Source: Chiloscyllium plagiosum (lineage: Eukaryota). From it: a DNA stretch of 43,879 nucleotides. A model generated the notes under the pieces. It was not told the DNA's origin, did no database searches, and saw nothing but the letters and a program-made list of their open reading frames with translations. Numbering within the stretch: the stretch's first letter is position 1; each line of letters starts with the position of its first letter. Shown here piece after piece: positions 1-26,105 of the stretch. A program made the translations under genes and the position numbers. The stretch is from the NCBI RefSeq assembly GCF_004010195.1, contig NC_057749.1, positions 11,655,496-11,699,374 on the forward strand, given 5' to 3'.

Positions 1-500
1 TTCTTCAGGTCCTTTCTGGCTATCCTGTATCCCTCCACTGCTCTGTCTGAATCCTGTTTCCTCAACCTTATGTATGCCTCCTTCTTCCTCTTTACCAGAC
101 CTTCAACCTCTCTCGTCAACCAAGGCTCCTTCACACGACCATTTCTTTCCTGCCTGACAGGTACATACATATCAAGGACACGTTGTATCTGTTCCTCGAA
201 AAAGTTCCACATTTCAATGACATCCTTCCCTGACAGCCTATGCTCCCAACGTATGCTCCTCAAATCCTGCCTTACAGCATCGTAATTTCCCTTCCCCCAA
301 TTATAAAATCTACCTTGTTGTGCGCACCTATCTCTCTCCATAACCAAGGTGAAAGTCACAGAATTGTGGTCACCATCACCAAAATGTTCACCCACTAACA
401 AGCCCACCACTTGTCCCGGTTCATTACCGAGTACCAAATCCAATATGGCCTCCCCTCTGGTTGGACAATCTACATACTGCGTTAGAAAAGCTTCCTGGAC
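1..500 (-). mobile_element. CR1-clade LINE fragment (ORF2, end of the APE endonuclease region), 5'-truncated, runs off the window start
   Basis: Minus strand reads LDLVLGNEPGQVVGLLVGEHFGDGDHNSVTF (APE DH motif) and is homologous to the CR1 at ~40850-41260. Abrupt junction to the GC-rich element near 500. Confidence 0.85.
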
Positions 501-1985
501 TCCTCTGGCAACCCAGCAAACCACCCATCCCTCCCACCTTCCGGCCACTCAAAGGCAGCCCACCCCATGCCCCTTCTGGCTCTCAGTTCACCACATGCCC
601 ACCTCTAGGACAGCCTGTCTGGTTTCCCCATACCCCCCCGCCCCTCAGAACCATAGCAATCAGGACGGCCTACTCACCTCGCACCTCCGGCTACCTCTAG
701 GACAACCCGCCCTAGTACCTTCCCAGGCTGACAGGGCTGAGGACAGCCTACCAGCCTCTCGGTCCACCCCTACATACATCTGACTCTCAGCCAGTCTGGT
801 GGACTGCCCTGACACCTTCTGGCCACTTCTAGGATAGTCCGTTCCCCCTCCATGGGGCAGTGGTGCACAGGGAAGCCCATAAGCCTTCTGGATCTTGGCC
901 AGCCCCTACGCACCTTCTGGCTCTCAGCCACTGACACACCTTCCAACTACCTCGAGAACAGCCTGCCTCGATTACCCCTTCTAGGAGCAACAGTGCTCAG
1001 AATGGCCTACCCACCTTCCGGCTCTCGGGGTGACCAGCATCAGGGTGGCCTACCTACCTTCAGGCTCTTGGGACAGCCTACCCACCTTCCAGTTCTCAGA
1101 ATGGCCTACTCACCCTCCAGCTTGCAGGGTGAAAGCTTCTGGGACAACCTTTGAGCCTCTCAGCTCATAGTGAGGCCTGGCAGACCCAGAGACATACAAG
1201 ACAGAGTAAACCCAACAAGCAACAAGACAGAGTCAATTACCAACAGTTCTCTCCAGAATGCAGAGTCCATTGCCAGGAATAGAGACCATTGCCAGAAACA
1301 GAGCACACACCTGAAGACAGAGTCCACTTCTGAAGGCAGCAAATACACACCCCACAGCGCGCGCGCGCACACACACACACGAGTTCAATCATCCATTGAA
1401 GCCTGGTCTATCCCCAGAGAACCAGGTCCATTCATAGGAATACAGTTCATTGTAAAAGGTGCAGTTAACTCACAGAGGATGGTCCACTCCAACAGGTAGC
1501 AAATGCTCACCTCCCAGCACACACAGAGACCTGGTCTACCCACAGAGGCCAGGCCTACTCACATGGGAACAGTTCATTTAGAAAGGTGCAGTATCTCACA
1601 GGGGCTCAGCCCAAACACCAAAAAGTGAAGGCACATGCAAACAAGAAAGAAAACCAGAGTGCATGGGCTAAATCTCCGCCACTTAAATCAGTATGGTCCT
1701 TTTCTCGAATCAAAAATAAAAGAATAACACAGGCTGTAACCAGCCTGTGAAACAACAGTCCCCTAATGAGAACTGAAATACACCTGTAACACATTGGCTG
1801 TGTAGATCAGCCAGTTTAGAAATCAGTCCTCAATTAAAAAAAGAATACCAGTTATCAAACTGGCTGTGTAAAAATCATCAAGTTCAGGAATCAGGTCCCC
1901 AAAAACAGAAACGAACAACAGTACTGACTGTGGCCAGTTTGCACAGTCAGTCCCCTAAACTAAGGAGATTATAATTCTCCTTGTT
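500..1985 (-). repeat. Unclassified non-coding element X, copy 1 (left end cut by CR1)
   Basis: Collinear with 3174-4595 and 14500-16100: degenerate ~28-bp GGACAGCCTACCCACCTTCCGGC repeats, then ~20-bp CAGAGTCCA(C/T)T repeats, ending in CAGTCCCCTAAACTAAGGAGATT..TCTCC. Strand inferred from the TATA-like and poly(A)-like signals. Confidence 0.75.
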
Positions 1986-2052
1986 TCATTATATTAAACA
2001 GTTTAAGTTAAAAAACAACAGTTAAAATGAAGAACAGTTTACAAAAACAGCA

Positions 2053-3173
2053 ATGGGAGACTGGTGAGCAAGATTAGGTCTCATGGAATACAGGGAGAAC
2101 TAGCCATTTGAAGTGGCTCAAAGATAGAAGACAGAGGGTGGTGGTAGAGGGTTGTTTTTCAGACTGAAGGCCTGTGACCAGTGGAGTGCCACAAGGATCG
2201 GTGCTGGGTCCACTACTTTTTATCATTTACATAACTGATTTGGATGTGAGCATAAGAGGGATAGTTAGTATGACTGGATGACACCAAAATTGGAGGTGTA
2301 GTGGACAGTGAAGAAGGTTACCTCAGGATCTTGCTCAGATGGGCCAATGGGCTAAGAAGTGGCAGATGGAGTTTAATTTAGATAAATGTGAGGTGCTGTA
2401 TTTTGGGAAAGCAAGTCTTAGCAGGACTTATACACTTAATGGTAAGATCCTAAGGAGTGTTGCTGAACAAAGAGACCTTGGAGTGCAGGTTCATAATTCC
2501 TTGAAAATGGAGTTGCAGGTAGATAGGATAGTGAAGGCGGAGTTTGGTATGCTTTCCTTTATTGGTCAAGGTATTGAATACAGGAGTTGGGAGGTCATAT
2601 TGCGGCTGTACAGGACATTGGTTAGGCCACTGCTGGAATATTGTGTGCAAATCTGGTCTCCTTCCTATCGGAAAGATATTGTGAAACTTGAAAGTGTTCA
2701 GAAAAGATGTATAAGGATGCCAGGGTTGGAGGATTTGAGCTATAGGGAGAGGTTGAATAGACTAGGGCTGTTTTCCCTGGAGCATCGGAGGCTGAGGGAT
2801 GACCTTACATAGGTTTATAAAATCATGAGGGGCATGGATAGGATAAATAGACAAGGTCTTTTCCCTAGAGCGTGGGAGTCCAGAACTAGTGGGCACAGAT
2901 TTAGGGTGAGAGGGGAAAGATAAGAGACCTAAGGGGCAATTTTTTCGTGCAGAGGGTGGTACATGTATAGAATGGGATTTCAGCGGATGTAGTGGAGGCT
3001 GGTACAATTACAACATTTAGAAAGCATCTGGATGGGTATATGAATAGGAAGGGTTTGGATGGATATGGGCCGGGTGCTGGCAGGTGGAACTAGATTGGGT
3101 TGGGATATCTGGTCAACATGGACGAGTTGGACCGAAGGGTCGGTTTCCGTGCTGTACATCTATGACTCCATGA
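2053..3173 (+). mobile_element. CR1/HER1-type LINE, 5'-truncated (RT C-terminus and 3' UTR)
   Basis: ORF 2339-2812 WQMEFNLDKCEV...LVRPLLEYCVQIWSP; upstream [10 protein letters not shown] motif; 3' tail CTGTACATCTATGACTCCATGA. Frameshifted. Confidence 0.95.
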
Positions 3174-4670
3174 ATATTTGCGGAGGGCGGGGGGCTGACC
3201 CCAAACTTCACCATACAGAAGAAAACAAAGGGGGAGAACGAACCTCAAATCCCACCTTAATATTATCAAGAATGAAACAAATCACAAACAGATAGTCCAA
3301 TAAAACAGTGCATATAACACAGACACCCCCAGCAACCTAGCAAACTACCCAGCCCTCCCACCTTCCGGCGACACAAAGGCAGCTCACTCTATGTGCCTCA
3401 TGTCCCTCCTGGCGACCTCTCAGACAGCCTGTCCTGTCTCCACACACACACCCTGCCCCAAGTACGACAGCGATCAGGATGGCCTACCCACCTTCCGACT
3501 TCTCTAACCGCCCTATCGCACCTTCCGGCCATTCAAGGATGGCTCGCCCCGGTACCTGACCAGGGTGACAGATCTCGGTCTGCTCCTATGTACTACCTGG
3601 CTCTCTCCCACCCTGATGCGCCATCCGGCCTGTTGACTGCCCTGACACACCTTCCGATCACCTCCAGGACAGCCCATCCCCTTCCTTGGGATGACAGTGC
3701 TCAGAGCAGCGCACAGGCCTTCGAATCTCAGCCTGCCCCTACGCATCTTATGGTGCTCAGCCATTCAGGCACCTTCCGACCACCTCTAGGACAGCCTGTC
3801 CCGATTACTCCTTCTCAGGACAACAGCGCTCAAAACAGCCAACAGCCTCCCAGCTCGCAGGCCTGTCAGACCCATGGACACACAAGGCAGTGCAAGTGAT
3901 AAGCCCAACAAACCAGACAGAGTCAATTAGCAACAAACAGAGTCCCTTACCATAAACAGTTCTCTTCAAAATGTAGAGGCCATTCCCAGGAACAGAGTCT
4001 ACTCCAGTATGCAAAGTGCATTGTCAGAAATAGAGTCCACTGCAATCTGCAGAGTCCATTGCCAAAAACAGAGTCCACTCTGGTATGCGCAGTCTACTCC
4101 TGAAGACAGCAAATACACACCCCACAGTACACACAGGTGTTAAGTCTCCATTAGAGAACCAGGCCCACTCTCAGGAACACAGTACATTGTAAAGGCGCAG
4201 TTAACTCACAGGGGTTTGGTCCACTCCCGAACTCCAGGATGCAGCAAATGCTCAGCTCCCAGCACCCACACACAGGTGTTCAGTCTTTACAGATGCCTAG
4301 TCCACCAACAAAGGGCTAGCGCTATCCACAGTAACAACTCATATGGAAAGGTGCACTCTCACAGGGGCTGAACCAAACACTAAAAAATATATGAAAACAT
4401 ATACAAAAAAAAGAAAATCAGAGTGCAAGGGCTAAGCCCTGCCACAAAATCAACATAGTGCTTTTCTCAAAAGTAAAAAAAGAATAACACCCAGGCTGTA
4501 CCCAGTCAGTGAAACAACCGTTCCCTAATGTGGGATGAATTATGCCTGAAACACATTGATTCTGTAAGAAATCAGTCCTCAAAAAAGGAATACCAAAGAG
4601 CACGCGGTGTCTACCAACACCCTTGAGCTGTTCAGGAAGAGGTGGGCACCACAGGGAGTGGAGTGCTTTC

Positions 4671-5333
4671 TGTGAGAAACGAAGCTCACTCACTTCAATA
4701 ATTTCAGTCTGAGACAAGATCTGAAGCAATCAGTATGTTTATTATATGCTTGCAAGCGTGGTGTCTAAAATAGACACACAGAGTTTAGCAAGTATATATC
4801 TTATATAGGATTCATTACTCCAAACCTGGTGCCCATTACTATTGCTTACCTCCTGCCTTATCCGGCCTTGTGCATAACATAGTACAAGTTTTATTTGGCC
4901 ATTTAACCACATCCTGCTGTGGTCCATTGTTAGGTATATCCTACTTCACTGCCATCTATTTCCCCCACTTGTGACATTTCCTCCCATTCCTCAACCATAT
5001 TGAACCTTATGACCTTTTAATTGGGGTTTGTTTTTTGTTTTTGCAGAAGTGGGAAACAGATGCTTATAACTACTGTTTGTACAAGCATATCTGGCTTAAC
5101 CTACATCCTCACAGCACCTTATCTATTTGTCTGTAACATCTACCATTGTTTGTAGGCACGTTTCATTCTTGTATGCACATTTTAGCTAATACAAAAACAA
5201 TTATATATTTCCTTCACATAGTTTTCATTCTTGTTGACTCAGCTCTTGGTTGAAACAATTATACACTAGTGTGAGTTCATTTACCTTGCATAAGTAATTA
5301 TGATTGCAGAAATAACACTACCTATATCGCACA
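4671..5333 (-). repeat. ERV 3' LTR
   Basis: Direct repeat of 12991-13651. On the minus strand, CCTATATAAG (TATA) near 4800-4809 and AATAAA at 4738-4743. Confidence 0.97.
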
Positions 5334-5351
5334 ATTTCCCCCTTTTTCTTT
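5334..5351 (-). promoter_or_regulatory. ERV polypurine tract
   Basis: Minus strand AAAGAAAAAGGGGGAAAT directly before the 3' LTR. Confidence 0.92.
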
Positions 5352-5383
5352 AATTATAATATGTTATCTTTTGCATTTTTCTT

Positions 5384-7250
5384 TTAAGCATCGCCCCCAA
5401 AATTCACAAGCATCATTCCAGAGATTTCATCCATCTTGGTCTCACTCACCCCCTCATTATTTAATCTATAAAGTTCCTCTGCCTGATTCCCTTTTAGGGG
5501 CATCTGTTTCATCAAGGCTGTCTCAATCAGTCTTTGGGTGAGCCCTTGTATACAGGGTATGATACAACAGTCAATGGCTACCAATACCCCGACTACTACT
5601 ATCAGGGAAGTAAGGATGGAAACCACCACCCCCTTCCATTTTCCAAAACAGGATTCAAGCCATCCCGTGAGAGATGTATCTACTCCTGAATTCTCAGCCA
5701 GTTCCTCTGCTAAGGTAGTCAATCCCCTTAAGGCCCATCAGGCGCAGTGTTATTAGGAATGAAGGTACAACAGCTTCCTCCTAAACATCTCTCTCACTCA
5801 CACACACCCCTTTTTCCATTAAAATCATATCAAGGGCCATTCTGTTTTCCCATGCCATCCTACTTGTGGCATCAAGCTGTTCTGATATTCCTTTAACCGC
5901 ATCTCTTGTATAATTTATAAACCGCTGTTGATTATAGAAAATATAATTTATCCAATCTACATTTTTATTAATTGTTACCCACCAAAAGAGAGCTGATTCA
6001 AAGCCTGCTGCAATCTGATTACGAACCTTGAACTCATCAGGCACTCCCCTAGGGACTCCTACAGAATCGAGATAAATCCTGTCATCGAACAAAGTGTCTA
6101 ACAGTGATCTCTTACTCCTTCTATTTTTCCCTACTATCTTTTCCTTCTCAAATGCCAGGGTAAATGGAATTGCCAATTGTACAATTGGACATACCCCTCT
6201 CCAATCCAGAGGTAGGGTGGGTCTCAATATTTTGCCTCCACAGTACTACCATAGATCCGCTCGGGGAACCTTCAGTGCTGAGTAGTTCCCTCCCTTGTCC
6301 GTTTCGGTGACATTCTTAATCTCTGTACATAATTTCAGCTCCCCCAAATCTCTGGACCGATTTGTACCTCGTTTACGCACACACGACGTGTGATTTCCGA
6401 TTGCGGCTGAAAACGTAGTGGGGGGCATTTGACTCTTTCTTCTCCAAGGGAGGGAACATCAGAGATAGGGAGGTACAGTTCCTATCATTCCATGCAGTCT
6501 TATCCTGATACAGGGCTACCATACATTTCATACCCTTTCTGTCTCGCTTCCACCCGAGCGGAAAGGGAACCACCTGGGCCACTGGCCTACCGGAGGCACA
6601 TGCATAGCAATTGCTTATTCAGACTTTTTACAGTATACTTTACCCATTCAACCCAGACATTTGCAGCCCCGTACCCAGTTTCTATTTCAATGGTCTGTTT
6701 TAAGTCCTTTACATCTATAATTTTTACTATTTTAAGGTCATTGGGAGGGGTGAAAGGTTGTACCTTATTATCCAGTAGTTCTGCCCGTTTTCCCTGTCCT
6801 ACGCTAATTCGAAAACAACAGCCCGACAAATCATTCCTGTTTGTTTTCATTTCTATCCCAAATGTTTCATTTAATTGTACCTGATCGATGCTCCCCAGAA
6901 TTGCTTCGTGCCATGCGGTTTTCTTTATCGCTAGGTATATTGGGTTACACTTTTTAATCGGGACAATCGAGAGCTGGTCGGAAGGGGGCCCGGAGTACTG
7001 TGACGAGACCATTATACCAAGTACCATCCCCGAGGCCATCCCCATAGGACTTAAGATGTATCTCTGAGCTGCGGTACTGTCTCTGATTATCTACATCCCC
7101 ACAGTTGACTAAGCTGCATGCATCAGCGTCTATTACTTGTGGATTATCAGACTCAGGGACCGTTAATAACACATATGAAAATGATATTTGACAAAATCCC
7201 AATACTAAGAGGGCTAGTATCATAACTCTAAGCATCCCCAGCATCCCCAG
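5384..7250 (-). pseudogene. env: Retroviral env (gamma-type SU/TM), frameshifted
   Basis: Signal peptide MLRVMILALLVLGFC; SU CxxC motif NCYACAS (~6595-6615, shifted frame); furin site RRSKR; immunosuppressive-domain-like ENRMALDMIL followed by GVC...GGSCCTFIPNN; transmembrane helix VVVSILTSLIVVVGVLVAI. Confidence 0.93.
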
Positions 7251-7251
7251 T

Positions 7252-7564
7252 GGGCGGCACGGTGGCACAGTGGTTAGCACTGCTGCCTCACAGCGCCTGA
7301 GACCCGGGTTCAATTCCCGCCTCAGGCGACTGACTGTGTGGAGTTTGCACGTTCTCCCCGTGTCTGCGTGGGTTTCCTCCGGGTGCTCCGGTTTCCTCCC
7401 ACAGTCCAAAGATGTGCAGGTCAGGTGAATTGGCCATGCTAAATTGCCTGTAGTGTTAGGTAGGGGGTAAATGTAGGGGGCACGGGTGGGTTGCGCTTCG
7501 GCAGGTCGGTGTGGACTTATTGGGCCGAAGGGCCTGTTTCCACGCTGTAATGTAATCTAATCTA
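7252..7564 (+). mobile_element. HE1-type tRNA-derived SINE, full length, inserted in the ERV
   Basis: GGGCGGCACGGTGGCACAGTGG (A box), GGTTCAATTCCC (B box), CR1-like tail GGGCCGAAGGGCCTGTTTCCAC, TAATC repeats. Near-identical to 37730-38052. Confidence 0.95.
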
Positions 7565-7673
7565 TCCTTGTATTCTAAAAATCGTGAAGTGCAAAAAGAC
7601 TTAATATACAATCCTACAGAAATAATCCCGCGCTCGCGTCGCCACTGTATAATCAGTTACTCAGTCTCTTTAG

Positions 7674-10600
7674 TCAGAGTTTCAGCGGTTCTTGGGTTGA
7701 TTCGACTGTCCAGACTTCTTCCTCAATTGGAGATTCCACTGGCCCTTTTATCTGAGTGTAGTGAGTCCAGCCTTTCTCCACCGTCCTTATTGCCGTTTTG
7801 GTAGTCAAAAGAGCCTGGTACGGCCCTTCCCAGTCCAGTTGTAATTTAGTCTCTGTCCATGATTTTACTAAGACCCAATCTCCCGGCCCGCTGGGATGAA
7901 CGGTGAATTCAAGAGGCGGAGTCTGTGCCAATAAACCCTGTTTCCTGAGGAAAGACAAAGAGGACAACAAGCCCAGTATATAGTTCTTTAAGAACAAGTC
8001 TTTAGTTTTGGGAATTGGCAATTCTCCATTCGTTCCCAGATAAGGTAATCCAAATAAGATTTCGTAGGGGGATAGTCCCAAGTCTTTCCTTGGGGCTGTT
8101 CGTACAAGAGAGCTATAGGTAAACATTTGGTCCAAGGGAGTCTGGTTTCTATTATCAATTTAGAAAGCTGTCGTTTGAGTGTTTGGTTCATTCTCTCAAC
8201 CCTTCCTGATGATTGCGGGTGCCATGGAGTATGGAAGTCCTAGGAAATTCCCAACCCTTTCATTACCCCCATAACACTTTAGAGGTAAAAGGAGTTCCTT
8301 GGTCGGAATCTATGTGGTTCACTAGCCCATAATCGGGGAATTATGTGCTCTAATATTGTTTTAGACACCCCTCTCGCAGTGGCAGTAGCTAGGGGGTATG
8401 CCTCAACCCAACCAGATAAGTGATCTACTATGACCAGCATATATTTCAGTCTTCCTATCTGGGTAGTTGAGTATAATCTACTTGTATACTCTGGAAGGGT
8501 CTCAATCCCGGGTCTCTTCCTCCCAGGGTATGTTTTCTCAAGGCTTTCTTATTTACCTTCCTGCATATTACACATCCCTCACATATTTGTTTAGCAATTG
8601 TATATATTCCTTTACATCCATATTCCCTAAGAACTAAATCACACATTGCTTGTACCCCCCAATTGCTGCCTTGATGTAAGACAGCCATAATTTCCTCGCA
8701 TCATCATTTTGTTTAACATTTCCCTTCCATCAGGTAACATCCAATGCCCGTTTGCTGTTTTTGCAGCCCCTAAATTTTTCAAATTCTTTTTCCTCTCTTT
8801 CAGTAAATATAGGAGCTTCCCGAGGACCTGGGACAGTAGGTATTAGGGAATGAATCTCCATTTCTTGTGGGTTCAGGGCTGCTTCCTTTAGCCGATGAAG
8901 TGGCTAATCTATTCCCCCTAGTTTCTGGTTCATTTCCTTTCTGATGACCATTTACATGTACTACTGTTATTTCTTGGGGGAGTAATAGGGACTCCAAGAC
9001 CCGTTTAATTAACTCCTCATGCTAATTCCTTCCCCCGGCCATTGATCAGTCCTCTTTCCTGCCATATCTTACCGAAAGTGTGCAAAATACCAAATGCATA
9101 TTTAGAGTCAGTGTATACTGTTCCCTCTTTATTTTCTAACGCCCTAAGGGCTCTTTCCAATACATAGAGTTCACAGGTCTGAGCTGACCACCCATTTGGC
9201 AACCTTCCTGCCTCTACCACACTACCTTTCATCCAGTCTACGACTGCATACCCATTATGTCTTTTCCCTTCAGGCACCCGGGATCATCCGTCTATAAAAA
9301 GTCGAGCTCCTGCATGAAGCGGAACATCTCTTAGGCCCATGCGGACCTTAGTTTGGTATTCTATAATGTCCAGGCAGTCATGCTCTGGATTCTGAGGAGA
9401 TTCTACTTCCCCTTTCCAAAGAAAGGCAGCTGGATTTAAACAGTTGTCCGTGACCAACACTAGATCATCCTTTTCTGTTAATATTGCCTCATTTCAGAAT
9501 CCGCGAGTCTGTCAACCATCGCTGAGCTTTTTGGTTTAGGATCACTCTCACTTGGTGTGGGGTGTTTATTATTAGGGCTTTCCCAAATGTAAGCTTTCTG
9601 CTTTTCTCCACCAACAGTGCAGTGGCAGCCACGGCCTGCACACACTCAGGCCAGCCCCGGGATACTGGATCCAATATCTTAGAAAGATATGCTACTGGCT
9701 GTTTCATTCCTCCCCACCTCTGGGTTAATACTCCCAAAGCCGCTCCCTTATTTACAGTAGCAAAGAGGTGGAAAGGTTTATCTAGAGAAGGTAAGGCGAA
9801 CACGGGGGCATGGATCAGATCTCTTTTGAGTTCCTCAACTAGTTCTTTTTCCTCATCATCCCAACTTAGACACTTTGGTTCCTCCTCTAATAGTTTGAGA
9901 TATAATTTCTTAGTCTTTTGAGTATAAGAATCAATCCACAATCTGCAATATCCCATTAGACCCAAAAATTTACGTAACTCCCGTTTAGTCCTGGGCAGCG
10001 GCATCCCCACTATTCCCTCTCTGCGTTCCGGGCTTAATTTTTCACTTTCCCTCACTAACTAAATGTCCTAAGTATTTCACTTCTCGCTTCACATATTATA
10101 TAGTTTGTTTTTAGATACTTGCAGTCCCTGCTGACCCAGGAAATTCAATAATTTGTTAGTGGCTTCTACTACTCTTTCTCTTCTTTTTCCTGTTACTAAG
10201 AGGTCGTCTACATACTGCAACAGGGTAGTTTCCTTGGGGCTGCTAAATTTCTCCAATATTTGTTCTAGCATCTGTCCAAATAAATTCAGGGATTCCATAA
10301 GCCCATTTGGGGGGGGGGGGTACGGTCCACCGTATTGCGGTTTCCATCCGGTCTTGGGATCTTCCCATTCAAAGGCAAACAAACTCCTACTTTCCTCCGC
10401 CAAGGGACAAGCCCAAAAGGCATCCTTTAAATCTATCACACTAAACCATTTGTGGTTATGAGGGTTCTTACTTAATAACGTGTAGGGGTTTGGCACCACT
10501 GGGTGCCTGATCTGTACTATTCGATTCAATGTTCTCAAATCCTGCACCAATCGATACGTTCCATCGGATTTCCGCACTGGTACAATTGGGGTATTATAAG

Positions 10601-11175
10601 GAGACATACATGGCTCCAACAGTCCATCTCTAATCAGTCCCTCAATTACTAGCTGCAGTCCTCGTTTACCTTCTATGGAAGTGGGATATTGTCGCTCACA
10701 GACAACATCCCCTTTCCTTTTTAAACTTATTTCTAAGGGAGGGTAGTTTTCCACGATTCCCTTCTCTAGCCCATACAATAGAGTCTCTCTCTGTCTCCAC
10801 ATCCTCTGTCAACATTACCATTTGTACAACTAATTCTTTTTCCTGAATTCCAATTTCCAGTCCTAAGAGGATAATTAAATCTCTCCCTAATTAGTTACTT
10901 TCTATATCAGGGATATAGAACAGTTCCCCTGTGACTCCATCCTTAGGACCTTCTATCATCATAGGTTCAAATACTGGAACAGTAAATCCTTCCCCTTTTA
11001 CCCCCAAAACAGTAATTGACCGTGTTGACATTCCTATTTTCTTTGGTTTAAAAAACAGCGATGACCGTGCTGCCCCCGTATCTACTAGGAAGACTACCTC
11101 TTCCCTACAGGGTCCCACCTTCAGGTTTATCAAGGGTTCCTGGTGGATCCCCGGGGGCAGGAACCCCTGACACCC
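7674..11175 (-). pseudogene. pol: Retroviral pro-pol (protease, RT, RNase H, integrase), disrupted
   Basis: Protease FLVDTGA; RT YRLVQDLR, IDLKDAF, LLQYVDDLL; RNase H SAQTCEL, YTDSKYAF, HVNGHQ; integrase H..WG..CEGCVIC, IDSDQG, WEGPYQ. Confidence 0.97.
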
Positions 11176-12676
11176 CTATTCTTCTTCAGAATTCATACCT
11201 GGAATTGCCCTTTCTTCCCTTTGTAGATCAGGATACTCCCGCTTAAAATGCCCTACCTTTCTGCAATAATAGCATCCTGCCTGTGGAGACATCCATCTCT
11301 GCCCCTGTCGCCTGAACCCTCTGTCAAATGCTCCCCCTTGTCCTCTCTCTCCCCGTCCTACATGCTGCCACCCGCCGCTCCATTTGCTCACTATTGGTTC
11401 CATTCTTTTCTTAACTACCTCATCAACCATAGCTACCAACATTTTTGCCTTCTGTTTTTGTCTCTCTTTACAAACACTTTGTGCCTCTTAACAATTCATC
11501 TAATAGTTTTTCACTTCACCCTTCTATAAATTTTCTCTATGTCTGGCCATGCCTTTGTCACAAAATGTACTTTCAAAAGGCTCTGTGCCACTGGGTCCTC
11601 AGAGCCAGAGTCAAATTCTGCGACTTTGGAACTGCCTCTCATTCCTTTTAGAATCAGGTCTTTCAATTCCTCATTTCTTCTCTATGCTCCAGGTTTTGAT
11701 TTTCCCACTGCAGGTCTCTGAGGGGAAACTTAGTCTCTCCCTGTCCAGCATCCCCAATCGGGCTGTTCCCTGTCCCATATTTTAAATGGCTGCTCCTCGT
11801 ATATGTCCCCTTTCTTCCCCAGTAAATAGTATATTCAAAATAGACATTAACATAGTCCATATATACAGACTGGGCCCCCAAAATTGATCAATTTGTTCAG
11901 ACAACCCTACTGGATCCTCAACCAGGACCTTCATCTCTTTAAATGTTCTGACCTCCCCACTGGTAAGGGGGGCACTTACAAATCAAATCTCTTTGTCCCC
12001 TAGCGGTGTCTCCTGAAGGGGATAAGTCTTTACGTTCTTCCTTTTTTTGTTTTTGTTTTTCCCCCTTAGGCTTTGGTTTAGATACTCCGGAGGCCTCCTC
12101 TACGTCTACTTTATCTTCCCTTTCTTTTGTTGAGGATTAAGGGTCAGGAACAAACAACATCCCCGTCCACCGCCCCTTCGTCGTCCTCTTGTGGGTCATC
12201 CGTTCCCTGTCCGTCTGTCTCTCAGTCTCTCCTCCTCCCCCATTTTCACCTAATCTGATTTTATGGTACGAGGGGGGCAAGCAGCCAAGAGGATCCCAGA
12301 GACTGGGTGGGGCAGAGGGGGAATCCCTTGTCTTTACTACCATCATTCCCAAACTGCCCTTCCAACAGGACACATAGTCCGCCTCCTCTTGACTAAAAGG
12401 TTGTTTTTCATTCACATACAAATCTAAATACTGACATACCCAATCCCCGAACCATACTTTGGCCAGAAGACAGCTGGACGAAGGATTGGTTCTTTGGTCC
12501 ATACGAAAGTAACAATATTTAATCACTTTCTTTTTATCTTTTTCCCCTTGTACAAGGGTTACTTGTCCATTCCCACAACATCCTCCCCAAAGGACTTTCA
12601 GGAGGAATATTACCAGGGACTTTTTCTTCCTTTACTTTGTCGCAGTTCGACTTACTTTGCCTCCCCTCCCCCCCAT
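11176..12676 (-). pseudogene. gag: Retroviral gag, disrupted
   Basis: Likely start MGGGEAK at 12676; matrix-like QYLDLYVNEKQPFSQEEADYVSCW; capsid-like PLTSGEVRTFK..EDPVGL; degenerate zinc knuckle CYYCRKVGHFKREY; TAG at 11176-11178. Confidence 0.9.
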
Positions 12677-12754
12677 TTCTCGGGGCCCTTGCCAGTCCCT
12701 CAGCGATTAAATACCCCTTTTCCCAGCCACCAAGGCAATACTTAAAAGTCAGTT

Positions 12755-12764
12755 TTCTTACCTT
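12755..12764 (-). promoter_or_regulatory. Putative ERV major splice donor
   Basis: Minus strand AAG|GTAAGAA in the leader between PBS and gag. Confidence 0.55.
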
Positions 12765-12970
12765 GGTCTGTGCACAGAGTTGCCTGGCCCCTTTTTGCCA
12801 TACTTTCTATCGACCTCCTTTCACTGCCTGATTCAGATGTCTCTCTTGTGGGATTCGTACCAGTTGCCTAAGGGAGCAGACCAAACCAGGACACAAGACC
12901 GCTCCTCAATTGGGAACGGGATGCATTTCCCAGTGTCCAGGGCAGCCACTCCCCCCAGGGATGGAAGAAT

Positions 12971-12988
12971 ATCCCGGACGAGCCCCCA
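12971..12988 (-). promoter_or_regulatory. Primer-binding site, tRNA-Pro
   Basis: Minus strand TGGGGGCTCGTCCGGGAT, the canonical 18-nt Pro PBS as in MLV, 2 nt after the 5' LTR. Confidence 0.97.
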
Positions 12989-12990
12989 GT

Positions 12991-13651
12991 TGTGAGAAAC
13001 TGAGCTCACTCACTTCAATAATTTCAGTCCGAGACAAGATCTGAAGCAATCAGTATGTTTATTATATGCTTGCAAGTGTGGTGTCTAAAATAGACACACA
13101 GTTTAGCAAGTACACATCTTATATAGGATTCACTACGCCAAACCCGGTGCCCATTACTATTGTTTACCTCCTGCCTTATCCAGCCGCGTGCATAACAAAG
13201 TACAAGTTTTATTTGGCCATTTAACCACATCCTGCTGTGGTCCATTGTTAGGTATATCTTCCTTCACTGCCATCTATTTCCCCCACTTATGACATTTCCT
13301 CCCATTCCTCAAACATATTGAACCTTATGACCTTTTAATTGGGATTTGTTTTTTGTTTTTGCAGAAGTGGGAAACAGATGCTTATAACTACTGTTTGTAC
13401 AAGCATATCTGGCTTAACCTACATCCTCACAGCACCTTATCTATTTGTCTGTAACATCTACCATTGTTTGTAGGCACATTTCATTCTTGTATGCACATTT
13501 TAACTAATACAAAAACAATTATATATTTCCTTCACAGTTTTAATTCTCGTTGACTCAGCTCTTGGTTGAAACAATTATACACTGGTGTGAGTTCATTTAC
13601 CTTGCATAAGTAATTATGATTGCAGAAATAACACTTTACCTATATCCCACA
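12991..13651 (-). repeat. ERV 5' LTR
   Basis: Direct repeat of 4671-5333, adjacent to the PBS. Confidence 0.97.
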
Positions 13652-14278
13652 TTTCTTACCCCCCCAACTCTTGATTTAATCCCTGCCCTCCCCTTCACTT
13701 TTAAAAAACAAAATCACACAGCATTGCCCTTTGATGAGAAGGGCACTGATTGTCACTGGTCATCCTAGTATTTCCTGTCTTCCTGGTGGTGGAAATTGAA
13801 TAAAGATTTGTACAGTTGTCGTCTTTCACTGTCTCATACCTGCATGCGCACAACATGGGTGCTGGGGAAAATATAAGCATGACCGCAGTTAGGCGGTAGT
13901 GTGGGAATAAAGGGGGGAGTGGGGGGAAGAAAAGAACATAACCAGGAGAGAGATTTAGACTCTCCTCAGTTTAGGGGACGGACTCTAAAAAATAAAAAAA
14001 AAATTTGTATATCTATTGTCTTTGACTGTCTCACCTGCACACACACACACGTGTGTTGGGGAAAATATAAGCACTACCACTGTTAGGTAGGTGTGGTGGG
14101 GGGGAAAAAAGAAAAAGAAATACCAGTTAATGAATCTGGCTTTGTAAACCAGCCATTTTTAAAATCAGGTTCTACAAAAGAAAAAGCAGAAACCAACAGC
14201 AGCAGTGACACACTGACTACGGCCCAGCCAGTACAGAGTCAGTTCCCTAAACTGAGGAGATTCTAAATCTCCTGGTTT

Positions 14279-16105
14279 TTTTTTTTATTTTAATAAACAA
14301 TAGACAGTTTACAAAACAGTGAACATTAACAGCTGTATACAGAGAAACAGCAATTTTCCAAGGAAGAAGGAGTGCCAAAGCCAGGCCTCAAACCCTACCG
14401 TCCAACTAGTTTTCAGGAAACGAGGACAAACCTCAAATCCCACTTTCCATCATCACAAAACAGTAACAAGTACATGTAACAGTCCAATTACATAAAAAAG
14501 TGCATAAAATACAGACCCCCCCAGCAAGCCACTCGTCCCTCCCAACTTCCGGCCACTCTAAGGCAGTCTGCCACTTCTGGCTCTCGGTCCACCCCATGTC
14601 ATGTCCAGTTCTCAGTCCACCCAGAGACCTTCCAACCATCTCTAGGACAGCCCATCCTACTTTCCCAACCCACCGCCAGGATGACAGCAGTCAGGACAGC
14701 CTACCCATCTTCTGGCTTCCCTAGCCACCCTTCACACTTTCCAGCCACCTCTAGGACAGCCCACACCAGTACCTGCCTGGGGTGACAGCGTTGAGGATGG
14801 CCTACCTGCCGTCTGGCTTTCTGTCTGCCCCTACATACCATTGAGCTCTCGCCCACTCCAATGCGCCATCCGGCCGGTGAACTGCCCTGACACTTTCTGG
14901 CCACCTCTAAGACAGCCCATCCCCTTCCCTGGGATGATAGCACACAGGGTAGCCCACAAGCCTTCTGGATCTTGGTCAACCCCAATGCACCTTCTAGTGT
15001 TTGGCTACCCTGACACCTTCCGACCACCACTAGGACAGCTCGTACCAATTACCCCTTTTTGGGGCAACACCGCTCAGAACAGCCTACCCACCTTCTGGCT
15101 CTCTAGGTGACTGGCATCAGGGTGGCCTCCCCACCCACTAGCTTTCAGGGTAGCCTACCCACTGTCAGGTTCACAGGACAGTCTATCCACCCTCTGGCTC
15201 TCAGGGTGACAGCTTTCAGGATGACCTGAGCTCCCAGTTCACAGAGCCTACTAGACCCAGGGACATAAGACAGTGCAGGTGATAACCCCAACAAGCAACA
15301 CGACAGTCAATTACCAACAAACAGTCCTTTCTGGTGCACCGTGTTTATTACCATAAGCAGTTCTCTTCAAAATGTAGAGTCCATTCCAGTATACAAAGTG
15401 CCTTGTCAGAAATGGAGTTCACTCCAAACTGCAGAGTCCATTGCTAAAAACAGAGTCCACTCCTGAAGGCAGCAAATGCACATCACACGTATTCAGTCTC
15501 CATAGAGTCCTGGCCTACTCACAGGAACACAGTACATTGTAAAAGCAGTTAACTAACAGGGGACTGAGGCAGAGTCCATTCCCAAACTACAGGATGCAGC
15601 AAATGCTCACCTCCCAGCACACACATAGGTGTTGAGTTTTTACAGAGGCCTAGTTACCCACAAAAGGGCCAGGCCTACCATACAGGACCAACTCATCCAG
15701 AAAGATGTATTTTCTCACAAGGCTCAGTCCAAACACCAAACAAGTGAAAATACATTCAAAAGAAAGAAAACCAGAGTGCAAGGGCTGAGCCCTGTCTCTA
15801 AATCAGCATAGTCCTCTTCTCAAAGAGTATCACACATACTGTAACTAGCCAGTGAAACAACAGTTCCCTAATGAGAACTGAGTTACACTTGAAAAACTGA
15901 CTGTGTAAATCAGGCAGTTTAGAAATCAGTCATCAATAAAAAAAGGAATACTAGTTAACAAACTAGCTAAATAATTCAGCCAGTTCAGGAATCACCCCAC
16001 CAAAAAAACAGAAACCAATAACAGCAGTAACACACTGACTGTAGTCCAGCCAGCATCAAGTCAGTTCCCTAAACTGAGGAGATTCTGAATCTCCTGGCCA
16101 TATTG
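14279..16105 (-). repeat. Element X copy 3 (uninterrupted, ~1.8 kb)
   Basis: Same blocks as copies 1 and 2. The left end reads ATTAAAATAAAAAAAAAAA on the minus strand (poly(A)-like); the right end has the dyad AGGAGATTCTGAATCTCCT. Confidence 0.75.
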
Positions 16106-16205
16106 GTCAGCCAGGCTTACCTGACTCTCCCAGTTTAGCAGAATATACTGACCATGGCCCACTTAGTCAGTCCCCTAAACTAAGGGGATTCCAAATCTCC
16201 TGGTT

Positions 16206-16327
16206 ATACATTTTTTTTCATACTTTACTTCCCATACTAATACCTAACTACAATAGTGCTTACATTTCCCCAGCACCCATGATAGGGGTGCAGATGTGAA
16301 ATACAACAGGTGTGCAAATCTTTATTC
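16206..16327 (-). mobile_element. Tx1-type 3' UTR stub with poly(A)
   Basis: Reverse strand GAATAAAGATTTG...CATGGGTGCTGGGGAAATGTAAGCACTA...AAAAAAAA matches 13798-13900. Flanked by ATCTCCTGGTT at 16195-16205 and 16328-16338. Confidence 0.8.
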
Positions 16328-16454
16328 ATCTCCTGGTTTATATTAGTCAGCCAGGGCTTTCCTGATTGGGGTTGTTAACCTGAGCTAATGACTTCAGAGT
16401 CAGAGTCAACAAGGTCAACCTGCAGCGACTAGTGTACTAGGACACATTCCTCTC

Positions 16455-16635
16455 TTTCATTTTATAGCCATTTAGATAATGATCTGCCCTCCTGTTTTTG
16501 CTACCAAAGTGAATAGCCTCAAATTTATCTACATTACACCTACCATTCATTTGGCCTCTCGGTCAGTTTGTCCAAATCATACTGAAGCATCTCTGAATCC
16601 ACCTCACAACACACACTCCCACCCAGCTCTGCATA
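16455..16635 (-). mobile_element. Old CR1 RT fragment
   Basis: ATCTGCCCTCCTGTTTTTGCTACCAAAGTGAATA resembles 33105-33140 (HFGSKN region). Confidence 0.6.
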
Positions 16636-17562
16636 GATTGTGATTGGACTTTCATTTGCTCAAATAGAAATGTGTCTCCAACCATTTTCCTCAATATTTC
16701 TCCGATTCTCTGGCTGTCACAGGGTCATGGGATTCTGCTCCAAAGACGGCAGCTTTTCCTTATCTTGTCCAAGTGATTGTTCATCATATGTGAGACATGG
16801 TACTGAGTGGTGGTCAGTTGTTTGACTGTGGGGGAATCCCAGGAATGAAATCAGCTGAAAATAGAAACCTGTTTGATCCTCTAGCTGAACCACTGAGGGT
16901 GATTGTAGTACTGGATAAGATCAGTTAACCAACCAACCAACCAATCAACTAGCTAGTTTGTCATGGAATCAAACTTTAGCACCTTCTAGAAAGAAGGAAA
17001 ATGAGTGGGAAAGCTCAACTGAAAATCAGAACTTCAAAGAAAGCTGGTCCTTCGATCAACATTGAGCTTGTGACAGATTCCAGAGCAAATATGGAGAGAG
17101 ACGGTCTCCCGTTATGAAGATTGGTCATTGTATGTCTTTTCAAGCCTTTACACTGTTCTCTGCAATTTGCTGCTTGAGGCATTGATCTCACGGCCGATAC
17201 TGTTTGAAATTTGAAATGAAACTGAAATTTGTGTTTTTATTTGAATCTTTCCTCCTCATCTCAAGTTTTTTTTAAGAAGAAACAAAGTAATTTCCCTTTG
17301 TGAGTTTTTGTTTAATTTTGCTGCATTGCTTTCATAATCTCCTCTACGTGCTATTCCCTGTCTGAGACACTAACCACAGCAGTAGGTCTCTGAAAGCTAC
17401 TGTCTGGAATCATTTGCTGTTCCAGCCTCAGCCAGTCAGAGCAAGCTGTTGCAATTCCTAATTCTGCATGCAACGTGAGTAAGATAGACAGTCAGCAGGA
17501 AATCACAATCAGACATTTCACTAACACACCCAGAAAAGGCTTTTGCTGAAAATGTGTTTTGT

Positions 17563-19453
17563 TTTTTTTAAAAATATATATTTTTTTCTTTATTTTTAAA
17601 TTTAACCCCCACACTACCGCCCAACTGCAGTAGTACGTATTTTTTCCCAGCAGCCATGGTGTGTGTGTACAGGTGTGAGACACAAGGTGCACGAATCTTT
17701 ATTCAATTTCCACCACCAGGAAGATAGGAAAAACATCCGAGTGGCCAGTGACAAGCAGTGCCCTTCACATCAAAGGGTAATGATGTGTGAAGGGGAGGGC
17801 AGGGATTAAATCAAAATAGAATTAGAGGGGGAAATAATGCACTCCACTCCCTGCGGTGCCCACCTCTCCCTGAACAACTCCAGGGTGTTGGTGGACACCG
17901 CGTGCTCCTTCTCCAAGGACACCCGGGCTCTAACGTAACCGCGGAAGAGGGGCAGGCAGTCGGCCCTAACGACCCCCTCCACGGCCCGCTGCCTGGACCT
18001 GTTTATGGCCAGTTTGGCCAGGCCCAGGAGCAGACCCACGAGGAGGTCTTCAGACCTGCCCTCCTTCCTCCGTACCGGGTGCCCAAAGATCAGGAGCGTG
18101 GGACTGAAGTGCAGCCAAAAACAGAGGAGAAAGTTTTTAAGAAAATCAAAAAGGGAGTGCAAACGCCCACACCCAATATACACGTGGTCCACGGACACCA
18201 CAGCGCCACAGAANNNNNNNNNNNNNNNNNNNNNNNNNNNNNNNNNNNNNNNNNNNNNNNNNNNNNNNNNNNNNNNNNNNNNNNNNNNNNNNNNNNNNNN
18301 NNNNNNNNNNNNNNNNNNNNNNNNNNNNNNNNNNNNNNNNNNNNNNNNNNNNNNNNNNNNNNNNNNNNNNNNNNNNNNNNNNNNNNNNNNNNNNNNNNNN
18401 NNNNNNNNNNNNNNNNNNNNNNNNNNNNNNNNNNNNNNNNNNNNNNNNNNNNNNNNNNNNNNNNNNNNNNNNNNNNNNNNNNNNNNNNNNNNNNNNNNNN
18501 NNNNNNNNNNNNNNNNNNNNNNNNNNNNNNNNNNNNNNNNNNNNNNNNNNNNNNNNNNNNNNNNNNNNNNNNNNNNNNNNNNNNNNNNNNNNNNNNNNNN
18601 NNNNNNNNNNNNNNNNNNNNNNNNNNNNNNNNNNNNNNNNNNNNNNNNNNNNNNNNNNNNNNNNNNNNNNNNNNNNNNNNNNNNNNNNNNNNNNNNNNNN
18701 NNNNNNNNNNNNNNNNNNNNNNNNNNNNNNNNNNNNNNNNNNNNNNNNNNNNNNNNNNNNNNNNNNNNNNNNAAATCAAAGAGGGAGTGCAAACGCCCAC
18801 ACCCAATATACAGGTGGTCCACAGATTCCACAGCGCCACAGAACAAGCAGTTGGGCTGGGAGTCCGTGAACCACCGCAATCTGCGGTTGCAGGGGACTGC
18901 TGCGTGCAGCATCCTCCACCCCAGATCCCCGAGAGAAAGGGGGAGGACTCCCGCGTAGAGGGCCCTCCACTGGGGATCCCCACCGCCCGGTGGCAAATGG
19001 GCACGCCAAGGTGTGTCCGGACGGTGGATGAGGGAGAAGAGGTGGATGGTGTGCAGCAGCAGTCTATACAGGACCAGCATTGTTACGTCCTTAAAAGGGA
19101 TGAAATTAAAATTCCGGAGGCGGCTCAGGTTGTGGGGCACAGGCTCCCGCGGGAAGTACGGGACCTTGGGGCCAATGTGAAATTCCATCCGGGCTGGGGT
19201 GAGCGCGGACGGGATCCCACCGCACACCTGAGCGTCCTCCAACTGGTGCACTACGTCGGGTCCGAGCACCGCCGTTTTAAGGCGTCAAATGGCGGTGGCC
19301 ACGTACCGGACATCTACCACTGCCCTGCTCGCTATGTCCTGCAGCAGCATCCAGCCCAGGCCCCCAGCACTCAGCACGTCCCCAACCCTGGTCACCCTCG
19401 CCGCCACGGCCCTCCCCTCTGACAGCCACTCGAACCCGCGAGTACGGAGGTGC
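17563..19453 (-). mobile_element. Tx1-clade LINE, 5'-truncated (ORF2 C-terminal zinc-finger region and 3' UTR)
   Basis: WRALY...GWRMLH...CLFCGAVESVDHLYIGC (RT-associated CCHC finger); stop at 17806; A-rich tail; CpG-rich. TSD AAAATGTGTTTTGT (17549-17562) / AAAATGTCTTTTGT (19454-19467). Confidence 0.9.
18214..18772. other. Assembly gap (559 N)
   Basis: Run of N. Confidence 1.
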
Positions 19454-20163: not shown

Positions 20164-20886
20164 AGTGAAGTATTCCCCAGTGTATGCACAGAATTACAAC
20201 CATCACTTGTCCACCACCCTCTCAAACCAATGACTTTACAAATTCTGGCAATCTGGATGTTTCACGATTCTCCTGGATCAGGTTTTCTTTCTTTGCAGAC
20301 AGTACTTCATTAGATCTCTCTGTGCATAGCTATTTGATTTCCTGCTTTTCTGAAGCTGTGACCCCTTCTGTACATTTTATAAAAGTGACTTATTGTGTTC
20401 ATGTAATTCTTGCTTGACTTGAAATCACAATATTTGCTTTTCTCCACTAATCTATAGAGATCATTAAATCCTCTATTAAACCCCTGGATGCTGAACGTTT
20501 CTATTAAATCTTGCTCATTTACAAGTTTTATTCATTCTGGGTTGATAGTGATTGTCAAAATCTGTCAATACTTTTAAAGTCTTATGCTTTTTTAAAACTC
20601 TTAATGAGCTGTGACATCATCAGCTATACTCCCAATTATGCATAGAAACTTGTTTACTAGCTCCACATCTGATTTACTATCTAATTTGGAAGCAATTCTG
20701 CTTCTCTAAAATTAAGTTTTCTTGACATTATTATTTCTGATGCCATATTTTTCTCATATGACTATATATTTTGCTTGCTTAAGAGACTTGTATTTCTCAG
20801 TAATAGCAGTTAAATTGCTATTTGCTGCCCACTAGAAAGTTTTGCCCCATTTTGTACCTAGCACTGAATAGTAATTTTTTTCTCAG

Positions 20887-21764
20887 TGTGACGATGCTGC
20901 TCCTTTAACAAGGTTATGTTGTCCTTGGTTTTTTGAAAAGGGTGTGTAAAGGCAGAGGTGCCGGCCTGGCTACCAGAGATTGCCTGAGTCAACAATCAGG
21001 GGAGGCCTTTAGGTTTTTTTTTCAAAAACAGTTGTACAATGAAAGAGGAGTGGCCAATTCTCCCAGTTCAGGGACTTTTCTAATTTGGTTTAGTTTTAGC
21101 AGTTAGAAACAGCTGGGGACAGAGAAGCCGCTACAGTGAAAAGAGGTTCAGGCGACTGACTGTGTGGAGTTTGCACGTTCTCCCTGTGTCTGCGTGGGTT
21201 TCCTCCGGGTGCTCCGGTTTCCTCCCACAGTCACAAAAGATGTGCAGGTCAGGTGAATTGGCCATGCTAAATTGCCTGTAGTGTTAGGTAAGGGGTAAAT
21301 GTAGGGGTATGGGTGGGTTGCGCTTCGGCGGGTCGGTGTGGACTTGTTGGGCCGAAGGGCCTGTTTCCACACTGTAAGTAATCTAAAAAGGTTCCTTGCT
21401 TCAGCAAATGACCCCTGGCTGATCCTCTCTCTCTAATATCTCTCCTTTAAGAACCTGGGTTAAATTTACCTTTTTGCCAAAGGGTATGTTTATGGGGATG
21501 TTGCAGGAATTTGGAACTGGATCATTAAGTTGCAATAGAGTTAGTTGCATTTTCAGATAGGTTATGTTATTCTAAACTCTGTTTCCTTTTGCTTGTGTTT
21601 CATTCAGTGGTGTGTAAATAAATTGTTTTACTTGAAGCCAAGTAGTTTGACCAGCTCATCACTCCTGGAATATCCACCTTACATCTGCCTAAATCAACTA
21701 GCAAAGTTAGGGTCTGGGCTACTTTCTTGAAATGTTTTGAGGGGGTCTGGCCTGGTCCATAACA
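20887..21764 (+). mobile_element. Solo LTR related to the Gmr1-like element's LTRs
   Basis: TGTGACGATG...GGTCCATAACA termini match the reverse complements of the LTR ends at 23323 and 27292; internal AATAAA near 21618. Confidence 0.85.
21148..21385 (+). mobile_element. HE1-type SINE, 5'-truncated, inside the solo LTR
   Basis: Near-identical to 7322-7560; flanked by AAAAGAGGTTC / AAAAAGGTTC. Confidence 0.92.
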
Positions 21765-22129
21765 TTGGCAGCAATGGAGAATGCTAGTTCTTCAGGGTAA
21801 AATGGAGCATACTACCCTCATCCATCAAAGTGGAGGATTCCTCCTTTTTTGAACCTTCAATAAATTATACCTGTTTCACTGATTCTTGATCCTCAAAATT
21901 CAAATAAAATAAAGTGTCTTAATTGTGACTCTTATGAAGCAATTTTGGTAGTCTGAATAAAGTCATCTTCAAATGTTCTAGCTTCTTTAGGCTTTTAATT
22001 TACTCAGTTTTATTACTTGAATTACTGGCTATGCGATGCACCCAGTTCTGTGACCTTGGATTAATTTTTCTTTTGTTGACCCTTCCTTCTATTTTGTTGT
22101 GTATTGTGGTTCCCAGCTGTTATGGACGG

Positions 22130-22852
22130 AACACATGTAAATATAGTGAAGAGATTCAGAGGAGGCTTATTAGATTGATACATGGAATGAGAAGGTTATT
22201 GTATGAGGAAAGGTTGTCCAGACAGAACTTGTTTCCACTGGAGTTTCGAACAGTGAGGGGCAACTTGAAGCGTGTAAGATCCTGAATGATCTTGAAAAAT
22301 GAATGTTCATAGGATATATTCTCTTTTTGGTCAGTCAGACTAGATATACGGTGATAAAACTAAGTGTTGCCTTTTCAAGATGGCGGTGAGGAGAACTTAT
22401 TTTTCTCTGATGGTTGTGTGACTTTTAAACTCTGACTAAGAGGTAGTAGAAATGGGAGCATTGTGTATTTTTGAGGCAGAGTTAGATAGATTCTTGTTCA
22501 GCAGGACAATCAAAGGTTATCAGGATAGATGGGAATATGGGATTCAAAACACAAACTAGGATACATAGTCTCAAAATAAGGGGGAGCAGATTTCGAACTG
22601 AATTGAGGAGGAACGTCTTCACCCAAAGGGATGTGAATCTATGGAATTCCCTGCCCAGTGAAGCAGTTGATGCTAACTCATAGCATGTTTTTAAGGGAAA
22701 GAATGATTTTTGAACAGTAAAGAAATTAAGGTTTATAGTGAATGGGCAGCTAAGTGGAATTGAATCCACAAAAAGATCAGCCATGATGTTATTGAATGGT
22801 GGAGCAGGCTCAGTGGGCCAAATGGCCTACTCCTGTTCCTATTTCTTGTGCT
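22130..22852 (+). mobile_element. Two decayed CR1 3' ends in tandem
   Basis: IQRRLIRLIHGMRRLLYEERL (CR1 ORF2 C-terminus); the second copy from ~22560 ends GGCCTACTCCTGTTCCTATTTC. Confidence 0.8.
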
Positions 22853-22854
22853 CT

Positions 22855-23323
22855 TAACTATATTGTAAAACTTAACCAAATAATAGATACAGTAACTTTC
22901 ACTACTTAACTGTTTCAATATAGTAACATCCCATAAACACACCCCTTAGCAAAAAGGTGAATTCAGAAGAATAGATTTCTCACAGGTAACCGAGCAGCAG
23001 AGGGAAACCCAGCTTCTAGCTGTAACCGAGAGAGGGAAAAGAAAGCTTCTACTTCTTCAAAACTCCAGCAGTTTCTGCCCTGTTGTGACTCCACAGCAAC
23101 AGCGTAATGCTAAACCCAATGACCTGAAAAAAAACTCCAAAGACCTGGCCTGTGAGAGCTGGCCACGCCTATCCAGGCTGCTTCTATTGTTTCAACTTTT
23201 AAATATGCCAAAGCCTCACAAGTTGTTTATCTTCTCATAGACTGCTCAATACCTGTCCTCCCCAGTCTCTCTCTCCAAGAAACCAGGACAAAACAAATCC
23301 CTTAAAGCCACAGCATCATCACA
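22855..23323 (-). repeat. Gypsy 3' LTR (partial)
   Basis: Homologous to ~27830-28275; ends CATCATCACA next to the PPT. Confidence 0.8.
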
Positions 23324-25958: not shown

Positions 25959-26105
25959 AGAGTCATAGAGATGTACAGCATGGAAACAAACCCTATGGTC
26001 CAACCCATCCATACTGACCAGATATCCTAAATTAATCTAGTCCCATTGACCAGCACTTGGCCTATATCCCTCTAAACCTTTCCTGTTCATGTACCCATCC
26101 AGGTG
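25959..26105 (-). mobile_element. CR1 3' tail stub inside the Gypsy element
   Basis: AGAGTCATAGAGATGTACAGCATGGAAAC is the reverse complement of the CR1 tail at ~32515-32545. Confidence 0.85.

Follow-up and report, generated by a model that had tools for sequence, protein, structure and literature searches.

A dispersed, head-to-tail non-coding repeat at a TATA-box site shared with LINE tails in Chiloscyllium plagiosum

How does a non-coding unit come to be stacked, copy upon copy, at one position beside a promoter-like sequence? The question is raised by a 43,879-nucleotide stretch of the Chiloscyllium plagiosum genome (contig NC_057749.1, positions 11,655,496 to 11,699,374 of the forward strand; hereafter the window), in which an earlier note, made from the sequence alone, had pointed to a ~1.8-kb element without family assignment between positions 500 and 16440. 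The copies of this unit form a collinear stack with junctions in one register, belong to a dispersed family, occupy a site that they have in common with the tails of long interspersed elements (LINEs), and are matched by minus-strand, A-primed RNA. The unit is an abundant and probably retroposed family. The explanation that we favour, with a probability of about 0.55, is that of an SVA-like, non-autonomous, non-coding retroposon, the head of which would be the transcribed part of a LINE target; carried by a LINE to that same site, it would rebuild the target under a CCAAT/TATA promoter.

Copies, heads and dispersal of the unit

Self-BLAST, and a MAFFT alignment from which the inserts had been removed, revealed three head-to-tail, collinear copies of the ~1.8-kb unit on the minus strand, together with a partial duplicate of the head, as the earlier note had described. 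Pairwise identities in that alignment are 75.8% between copies 3 and 2 (1535 columns), 75.6% between copies 3 and 1 (1435) and 75.0% between copies 2 and 1 (1296). Copy 3 (14277..16098) is the most complete and was delimited by alignment, repeated 8-mers and multi-copy depth; it consists of the head, a T-rich part, two degenerate short-repeat zones, a T-rich tail, ATTAAAAT and an A-run. Copy 2 (1985..14276), traced by self-BLAST, alignment and motif search, is broken into three pieces, at 14099-14276, 3177-4594 and 1985-2052. Copy 1 (500..1984), found by self-BLAST and alignment, is interrupted at ~500 by a CR1 element that runs out of the window, and its 3' end is therefore out of sight. The three copies are related in a star-like manner, with 147, 123 and 122 private changes.

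That no open reading frame (ORF) is conserved was borne out by three kinds of evidence, on which a coding origin was rejected. Seventeen of 18 read-through frames were without a Pfam match and the remaining one had a sub-cutoff match at E 0.02; 12 of 73 internal gaps are divisible by three; and the longest ORF (193 aa), searched against proteins of 106-338 residues, gave 0 of 182 candidates at E<=0.001. The body of copy 3 holds 142 pairs of repeated 8-mers, against 32 +/- 8 (maximum 66) in 100 block shuffles, so that the unit has the non-coding body with internal tandem repeats expected of an SVA-like element. Rfam produced no match in the window at the gathering score and none at E<=1 in 13600-16500; by this measure the head does not derive from small nuclear RNA (snRNA), tRNA, 5S or 7SL RNA, as it would in SINEU or a classical short interspersed element (SINE). 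A hammerhead core pattern had no match in 400-17600 outside the provirus described below. Homology of the unit to the long terminal repeats (LTRs) or LINE untranslated regions (UTRs) of the window was likewise rejected, by shuffle-scored comparison.

Depth was obtained from four of 24 runs, by aligning three contig sets from three organisms (X1, X13 and X17) and one RNA run (X21) to positions 14100-17100 at 80% likeness; summed depth of this kind gives no copy number, and X1 possibly comes from the window's own source. The three contig sets covered the unique flank to depths of 7.1, 13.8 and 6.1, respectively, and the 18 bins of the body reached 179-1,575, 77-876 and 73-1,330 times that value (medians 595, 286 and 351), most of the aligned contigs being less than 95% alike to the window. 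Many copies beyond this locus had been predicted, and a body depth of 73-1,575 times the flank in three organisms agrees with this; the magnitude of the depth and the presence of two further organisms rule out a single locus. The unit is a dispersed, multi-copy, non-coding family in three shark-like genomes. A 24-base pattern of its head was found in no stretch of the metagenome contigs and in none of the viral contigs.

Motif search placed the starts of minus-strand heads at 16098, 14276 and 1984, with a partial head at 16204 and a 15-bp stub at 16337. The earlier inventory had overlooked a sixth head, which follows a LINE tail on the plus strand at 13941. Both visible tail-to-head junctions, copy 3 to copy 2 and copy 2 to copy 1, lie in one register between TATA and ACCAGGAG, so that the claim of a common position stands. 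The former junction reads ATTAAAAT plus a run of 11 A (14276-14286), then CCAGGAG; the latter has a similar AT-rich motif in the same register and no poly(A) run. The claim of variable A-tails, in consequence, comes down to two junctions, with 11 A after copy 3 and none after copy 2.

The head is itself part of something larger. Its bin was covered 12,636, 30,070 and 1,450 times as deeply as the flank in the three contig sets. As the abundance of the head greatly exceeds that of the body, the site is part of a larger repeat family; the TATA junction site proposed by the earlier note is real, but it is not the element's alone. Joints and loose ends were drawn from the matches listed (15 of 1,256 and 24 of 3,692). 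Among these, the alignment of many contigs breaks off at 14224 and at 14277 (116 and 72 in X1, 186 and 156 in X13, 104 and 70 in X17), and these two points delimit a 54-base core. In copy 2 this 54-bp head core (14224..14277, minus strand; depth bin 14201-14301) contains the conserved dyad AGGAGATT-3-AATCTCCT, and the terminal stem-loop is kept in all heads. Joints that step back 54 bases with 12-14 AT-rich letters in between, among the matches listed, correspond to tandem monomers of ~60-70 bases, most strongly in X13, and the AT-rich spacers between monomers are varied. These tandem arrays of the 54-bp head resemble a young satellite that has arisen from the target of a LINE. The relative depth of the head differs ~20-fold between organisms B and C.

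Comparison with copies at other loci adds some detail on relationships. At 25 sites where the family majority is unlike copy 3 (sites taken from the depth comparison and chosen for differing from copy 3), the family letter is present at 16 of 17 ungapped positions in copy 1 and at 16 of 18 in copy 2. A structural variant in RNA reads from other loci agrees with copy 1 at 17 of 17 bases, and copies 2 and 3 fit it less well; that it is closest to copy 1 hints at distinct source copies.

The target site, its promoter and the LINE partner

At the top of the array lies a piece of RNA polymerase II (Pol II)-type promoter (16337..16369, minus strand), recognised in the sequence by CCAAT at 16369-16365 and TATAAA at 16342-16337. 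Both motifs had been noted as the start of the array and are present, but CCAAT is at 16369-16365 rather than at 16362, and the start was misplaced: a 119-bp LINE tail (16209-16327) sits between TATA and the first head. Once this tail is removed, an initiator-like A lies 29 bases past TATA. At other loci the head is joined directly to 16338 in three of three DNA runs (joints 14266/14275 to 16338), among the matches listed. Between the LINE tail and copy 3, alignment identified a 106-bp duplicate (16099..16204, minus strand) made up of a partial head of ~70 bases, 75-78% identical to the heads of all three copies, and a decayed promoter remnant devoid of CCAAT and TATA.

The LINE tail at 16209..16327 (minus strand) is a 5'-truncated 3' tail of a LINE of the L1/Tx1 group inserted at the TATA site; its counterpart (z 24) is the 3' UTR belonging to the LINE at 17565-19422. 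It is enclosed by a 14-15-bp target-site duplication, with the left copy at 16328..16342 (minus strand) and the right copy at 16195-16208. Of four LINE tails in the window two are at the TATA site, this one inside its duplication and a second that stops at the plus-strand head at 13941. The suspected link with Tx1/L1-type elements is upheld to this extent: the junctions of the unit coincide with the site hit by tails of L1/Tx1-group LINEs. The LINE itself displays reverse transcriptase and zf-RVT domains as well as L1-like matches, and its fragment has named relatives in gene models of Hemiscyllium, Pristis and Pristiophorus, which speaks for an elasmobranch as the most likely host; domains and matches thus place the putative partner in the L1/Tx1 group, the narrower Tx1 label being that of the earlier note. 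LINE-protein scans confirmed 0 of 293 candidate stretches in metagenome contigs and 0 of 3 in viral contigs.

Two observations concern the LINEs rather than the unit. The short tails at 16209-16327 and 13990-14110 both start at about AATAAA, ~110 bases before the LINE end, and may represent a short non-autonomous form. An assembly gap (18214-18773) falls inside the LINE, with 71 bases repeated on either side at 93% identity.

RNA was examined in X21, a single-cell poly(A) run of which ~2 in 100 was read and 225 reads aligned; as 217 of the 225 are less than 95% alike to the window, the reads come mostly from other copies. At 14276, eighteen of them run off into a loose stretch of poly-T (median 57 letters), and over the tail the depth of first mates is 14-20 on the plus strand against ~2 on the minus strand. 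From the poly-T ends and the mate polarity it follows that minus-strand RNAs end, or are primed, at the A-rich end of the unit, and the predicted minus-strand polarity with an A-rich 3' end is thereby seen in oligo-dT RNA reads. The LINE tail has the same polarity as the unit tail (15.3 versus 0). Separately, the match of 13 X21 reads at 14311 is confined to the final ~35 bases of the unit, beyond which they diverge; they could derive from another element with the same tail, perhaps an autonomous partner, or reflect chance in T-rich sequence.

On the favoured explanation, the first ~70 bases of the unit would be the sequence just past the TATA of an abundant, LINE-targeted repeat, followed by a 1.75-kb body and an A-rich end. 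Pol II would start ~29 bases after TATA and the transcript would extend to the ATTAAA/A end. A LINE protein would then take this RNA by its poly(A), nick the DNA between TATA and ACCAGGAG and reverse-transcribe there, as the shared site suggests. Homology between the head and the DNA downstream of the nick would then serve to make the 5' joint, and the site would be rebuilt intact; intact heads are indeed observed. The newest copy would lie under the promoter with the older ones pushed away, and stacks would therefore grow from the promoter end. Each new copy, then, probably rebuilds the TATA site and takes over the promoter. Only tentatively would we go further and regard the site as a self-renewing landing pad with promoter capture, in which a target-headed passenger RNA rebuilds its target so that an external Pol II promoter always has the newest copy beneath it; one and the same head would give rise to stacks of the 1.8-kb unit, stacks of LINE tails and satellite-like arrays of 60-70 bp (~20-fold more expanded in one lineage), and the order in a stack would be the order of insertion.

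Competing explanations and known systems

Several observations weigh against the favoured explanation. Copy 3 retains a promoter remnant of its own (~16099-16126), which aligns to the promoter and is not predicted by a simple model. The 5' truncations foreseen by the earlier note leave no gradient, X1 depth being 10,206-11,152 near the head end and 10,106 at the tail (a comparison confounded by the divergence of copy 3), and depth along the body is without 3' bias. Copy 2 ends without a poly(A) run. The two visible junctions may be a single junction copied by an old tandem duplication, and the star pattern is equally expected from an old local duplication. A target duplication specific to the unit is undefinable, because head and target are the same sequence. 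The tail of the unit is unlike the Tx1-type and L1 3' UTRs of the window (z 0.9 and 1.4), and two of the four LINE tails are off the site, with ends near 14110 and 17565. As to RNA, the X21 signal may stem from internal priming at A-runs in the genome, a comparable signal (~9) occurs on the plus strand at 15514-15715, and the 225 reads form no start pile-up. The reading as a non-autonomous poly(A) retroelement finds support in the dispersal, the polarity and the LINE-used site, and none as yet in poly(A) variability or 5' truncation.

One alternative is that a dispersed retroelement founded a single tail-to-head junction, which old unequal crossing-over then copied, with no repeated targeting by the unit. 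The two junctions would not be independent, the pairwise identities are equal at 75-76%, head monomers elsewhere demonstrate that the sequence amplifies locally, and the 106-bp duplicate at the top of the array is a local duplication. The junction tails are nevertheless unlike (11 A versus none), copy-3-specific letters are almost unshared (0 of 17 and 1 of 18, at sites picked because copy 3 departs from the family there), large indels are not the same from copy to copy, and the breakpoint is the LINE target, so that we consider this origin of the stack unlikely. Rather more doubtful is a derivation from an LTR element, with the unit as its long transcribed part (R, or R-U5-leader) and the promoter as its U3, most copies having spread as LTRs and the stacked ones being LINE-made retrocopies. 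CCAAT, TATA, head, T-rich end and a poly(A)-signal-like motif do follow in LTR order, and the even depth of the body suggests mostly full-length copies. The unit, however, resembles none of six LTR segments present in the window (all z<=3.3), and no primer-binding motif was found near the head with ten motifs that detected the provirus control (none in copy 3; one 9/10 match 950 bases into copy 1). X1 depth is single-copy at 16438, so that no repeated TG start is seen, the TG at ~16446 lying in this single-copy region and the opposite terminus falling beyond the window. The A-run, moreover, begins 2-3 bases after ATTAAA, and the depth of the head exceeds the body median by a factor of 4-100. 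The continuation past the 54-bp head at other loci was not used for calling the target an LTR, since its consensus is mixed (agreement 0.47-0.48) and matches no head here well.

Improbable, in our view, is a non-autonomous rolling-circle element of HINE/Helentron type on the plus strand, which would end in a hairpin and CTGG before a T-run and owe its abundant head and tandem arrays to shared termini. The stem-loop of all heads, the T-rich flanks, the internal repeats and a terminus commoner than the body fit such an element. In HINEs, subterminal inverted repeats of 12-15 bp begin 2-4 bases from the 5' end (PMC4067079); the best such repeat in the unit is 7 bp, a length reached by 58 and 54 of 500 shuffles. 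Its ends give a mixed picture beside the HINE definition, which has a stem-loop 8-35 bases from the 3' end and TT flanks with no target duplication: a stem-loop is present, 2-4 bases from the unit end, and T follows at two junctions and not after copy 3. The spacing of CCAAT, TATA and initiator and the minus-strand polarity of the RNA would also be left unexplained. Least probable of all is a single-locus macrosatellite, for which the head-to-tail arrangement might be cited; a body 73-1,575 times as deep as the flank in three organisms, with most contigs less than 95% alike, refutes it unless all copies lie in one giant array.

For the favoured retroposon, the closest precedent appears to be the crocodilian SINEU with its partner Tx1-Mar (PMC4494074). 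SINEU has its target in common with Tx1-Mar and forms tandem insertions, and SINEU-2B, which may be transcribed from the target, carries a 5' extension taken from it; Tx1-8_Crp and Tx1-4_AMi prefer LTR retrotransposons (PMC4494074). SINEU is there, as our unit is proposed to be, a non-coding poly(A) passenger with a target inside another repeat shared with a Tx1-clade LINE, arranged in tandem around the duplication, and for SINEU-1, too, no 3' similarity to a LINE was found. SINEU heads, on the other hand, are U1/U2 snRNA and the head of the unit is without an Rfam match; lacking an snRNA head, the unit is not a SINEU. Further differences from SINEU are its length of 1.8 kb and a head formed by the target's own downstream sequence, which lies at a TATA box and keeps one orientation throughout the copies. 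SVA of hominids (PMC3287187) is similarly composite and non-coding, with internal tandem repeats and an A tail; it is moved in trans by an L1-type protein, and new insertions are mostly full-length. No hexamer, Alu or SINE-R part was recognised in the unit, our comparison is one of likeness without a claim of homology, and SVA is described there as inserting at a loose TTTT/AA motif rather than at one site (PMC3287187).

Further parallels are partial. The R2 and R2/R1 SIDEs of Drosophila are non-autonomous, depend on a LINE that is site-specific and are co-transcribed with their target, as is proposed for the unit. They are deletion derivatives with a LINE 3' end and a 5' ribozyme (PMC3414825), whereas the unit tail is unlike the LINE tails of the window, sharing its 3' end with neither of the two LINE 3' UTRs there, and no ribozyme family was matched. 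HeT-A arrays are likewise head-to-tail, each copy depending on promoter sequence upstream; the HeT-A promoter is placed in its own 3' UTR and the element encodes Gag (PMC5537684), in contrast to the unit, where the promoter would be external and serve the first copy only. No description of this repeat family was found in the literature searched, which left out most subscription papers, Repbase and Dfam. Because the parts have precedents in SINEU/Tx1-Mar, SIDEs and SVA, the gain lies in their being newly combined and in a large repeat family not found described, and no new principle is involved. If the favoured explanation is true, a non-autonomous element can live without an internal promoter or ribozyme by carrying the downstream half of its target and borrowing the upstream half; its stacks would be ordered and datable, a transposon target could pass directly into a satellite, and nature would supply a test of whether a vertebrate site-specific LINE joins 5' ends under the guidance of homology.

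Later insertions and neighbouring features

Copy 2 has received a compound plus-strand insertion (4595..14110), delimited by self-BLAST and motif search and lying in a 14-15-bp A-rich duplication. In order, it comprises a LINE tail (4595-4669 and 13655-13930), a head of 50 bases (13941-13986), an A-run and another LINE tail, the first tail being split by a provirus at 4671-13654. This order suggests LINE read-through into its own target. Insertion of the plus-strand block at the same target within copy 2 was considered and rejected: ACCA is at the end of the duplication and not in its middle. The provirus, on the minus strand, has LTRs that are 95.2% identical, a tRNA-Pro-type primer site and a 4-bp duplication; its reading frames are broken, and a SINE is inserted at 7252-7568. 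The tail of copy 2 also contains a plus-strand LINE fragment (2053..3171), 86% identical to 31402-32546, which we take to be of CR1 type from the earlier note and from its features.

Elsewhere in the window, 35598-36250 on the minus strand is the 3' end of an L1-like LINE with a T-rich tail resembling that of the unit in style, at shuffle level (z 1.4). The region 20884-28270 includes LTR-like segments (20884-21765; 22855-23315, matching 27829-28268) on either side of a decayed Gypsy-like interior, with SINE insertions, and is followed at 28286-31154 by a 43-bp minisatellite of 66.6 copies with 84% matches.

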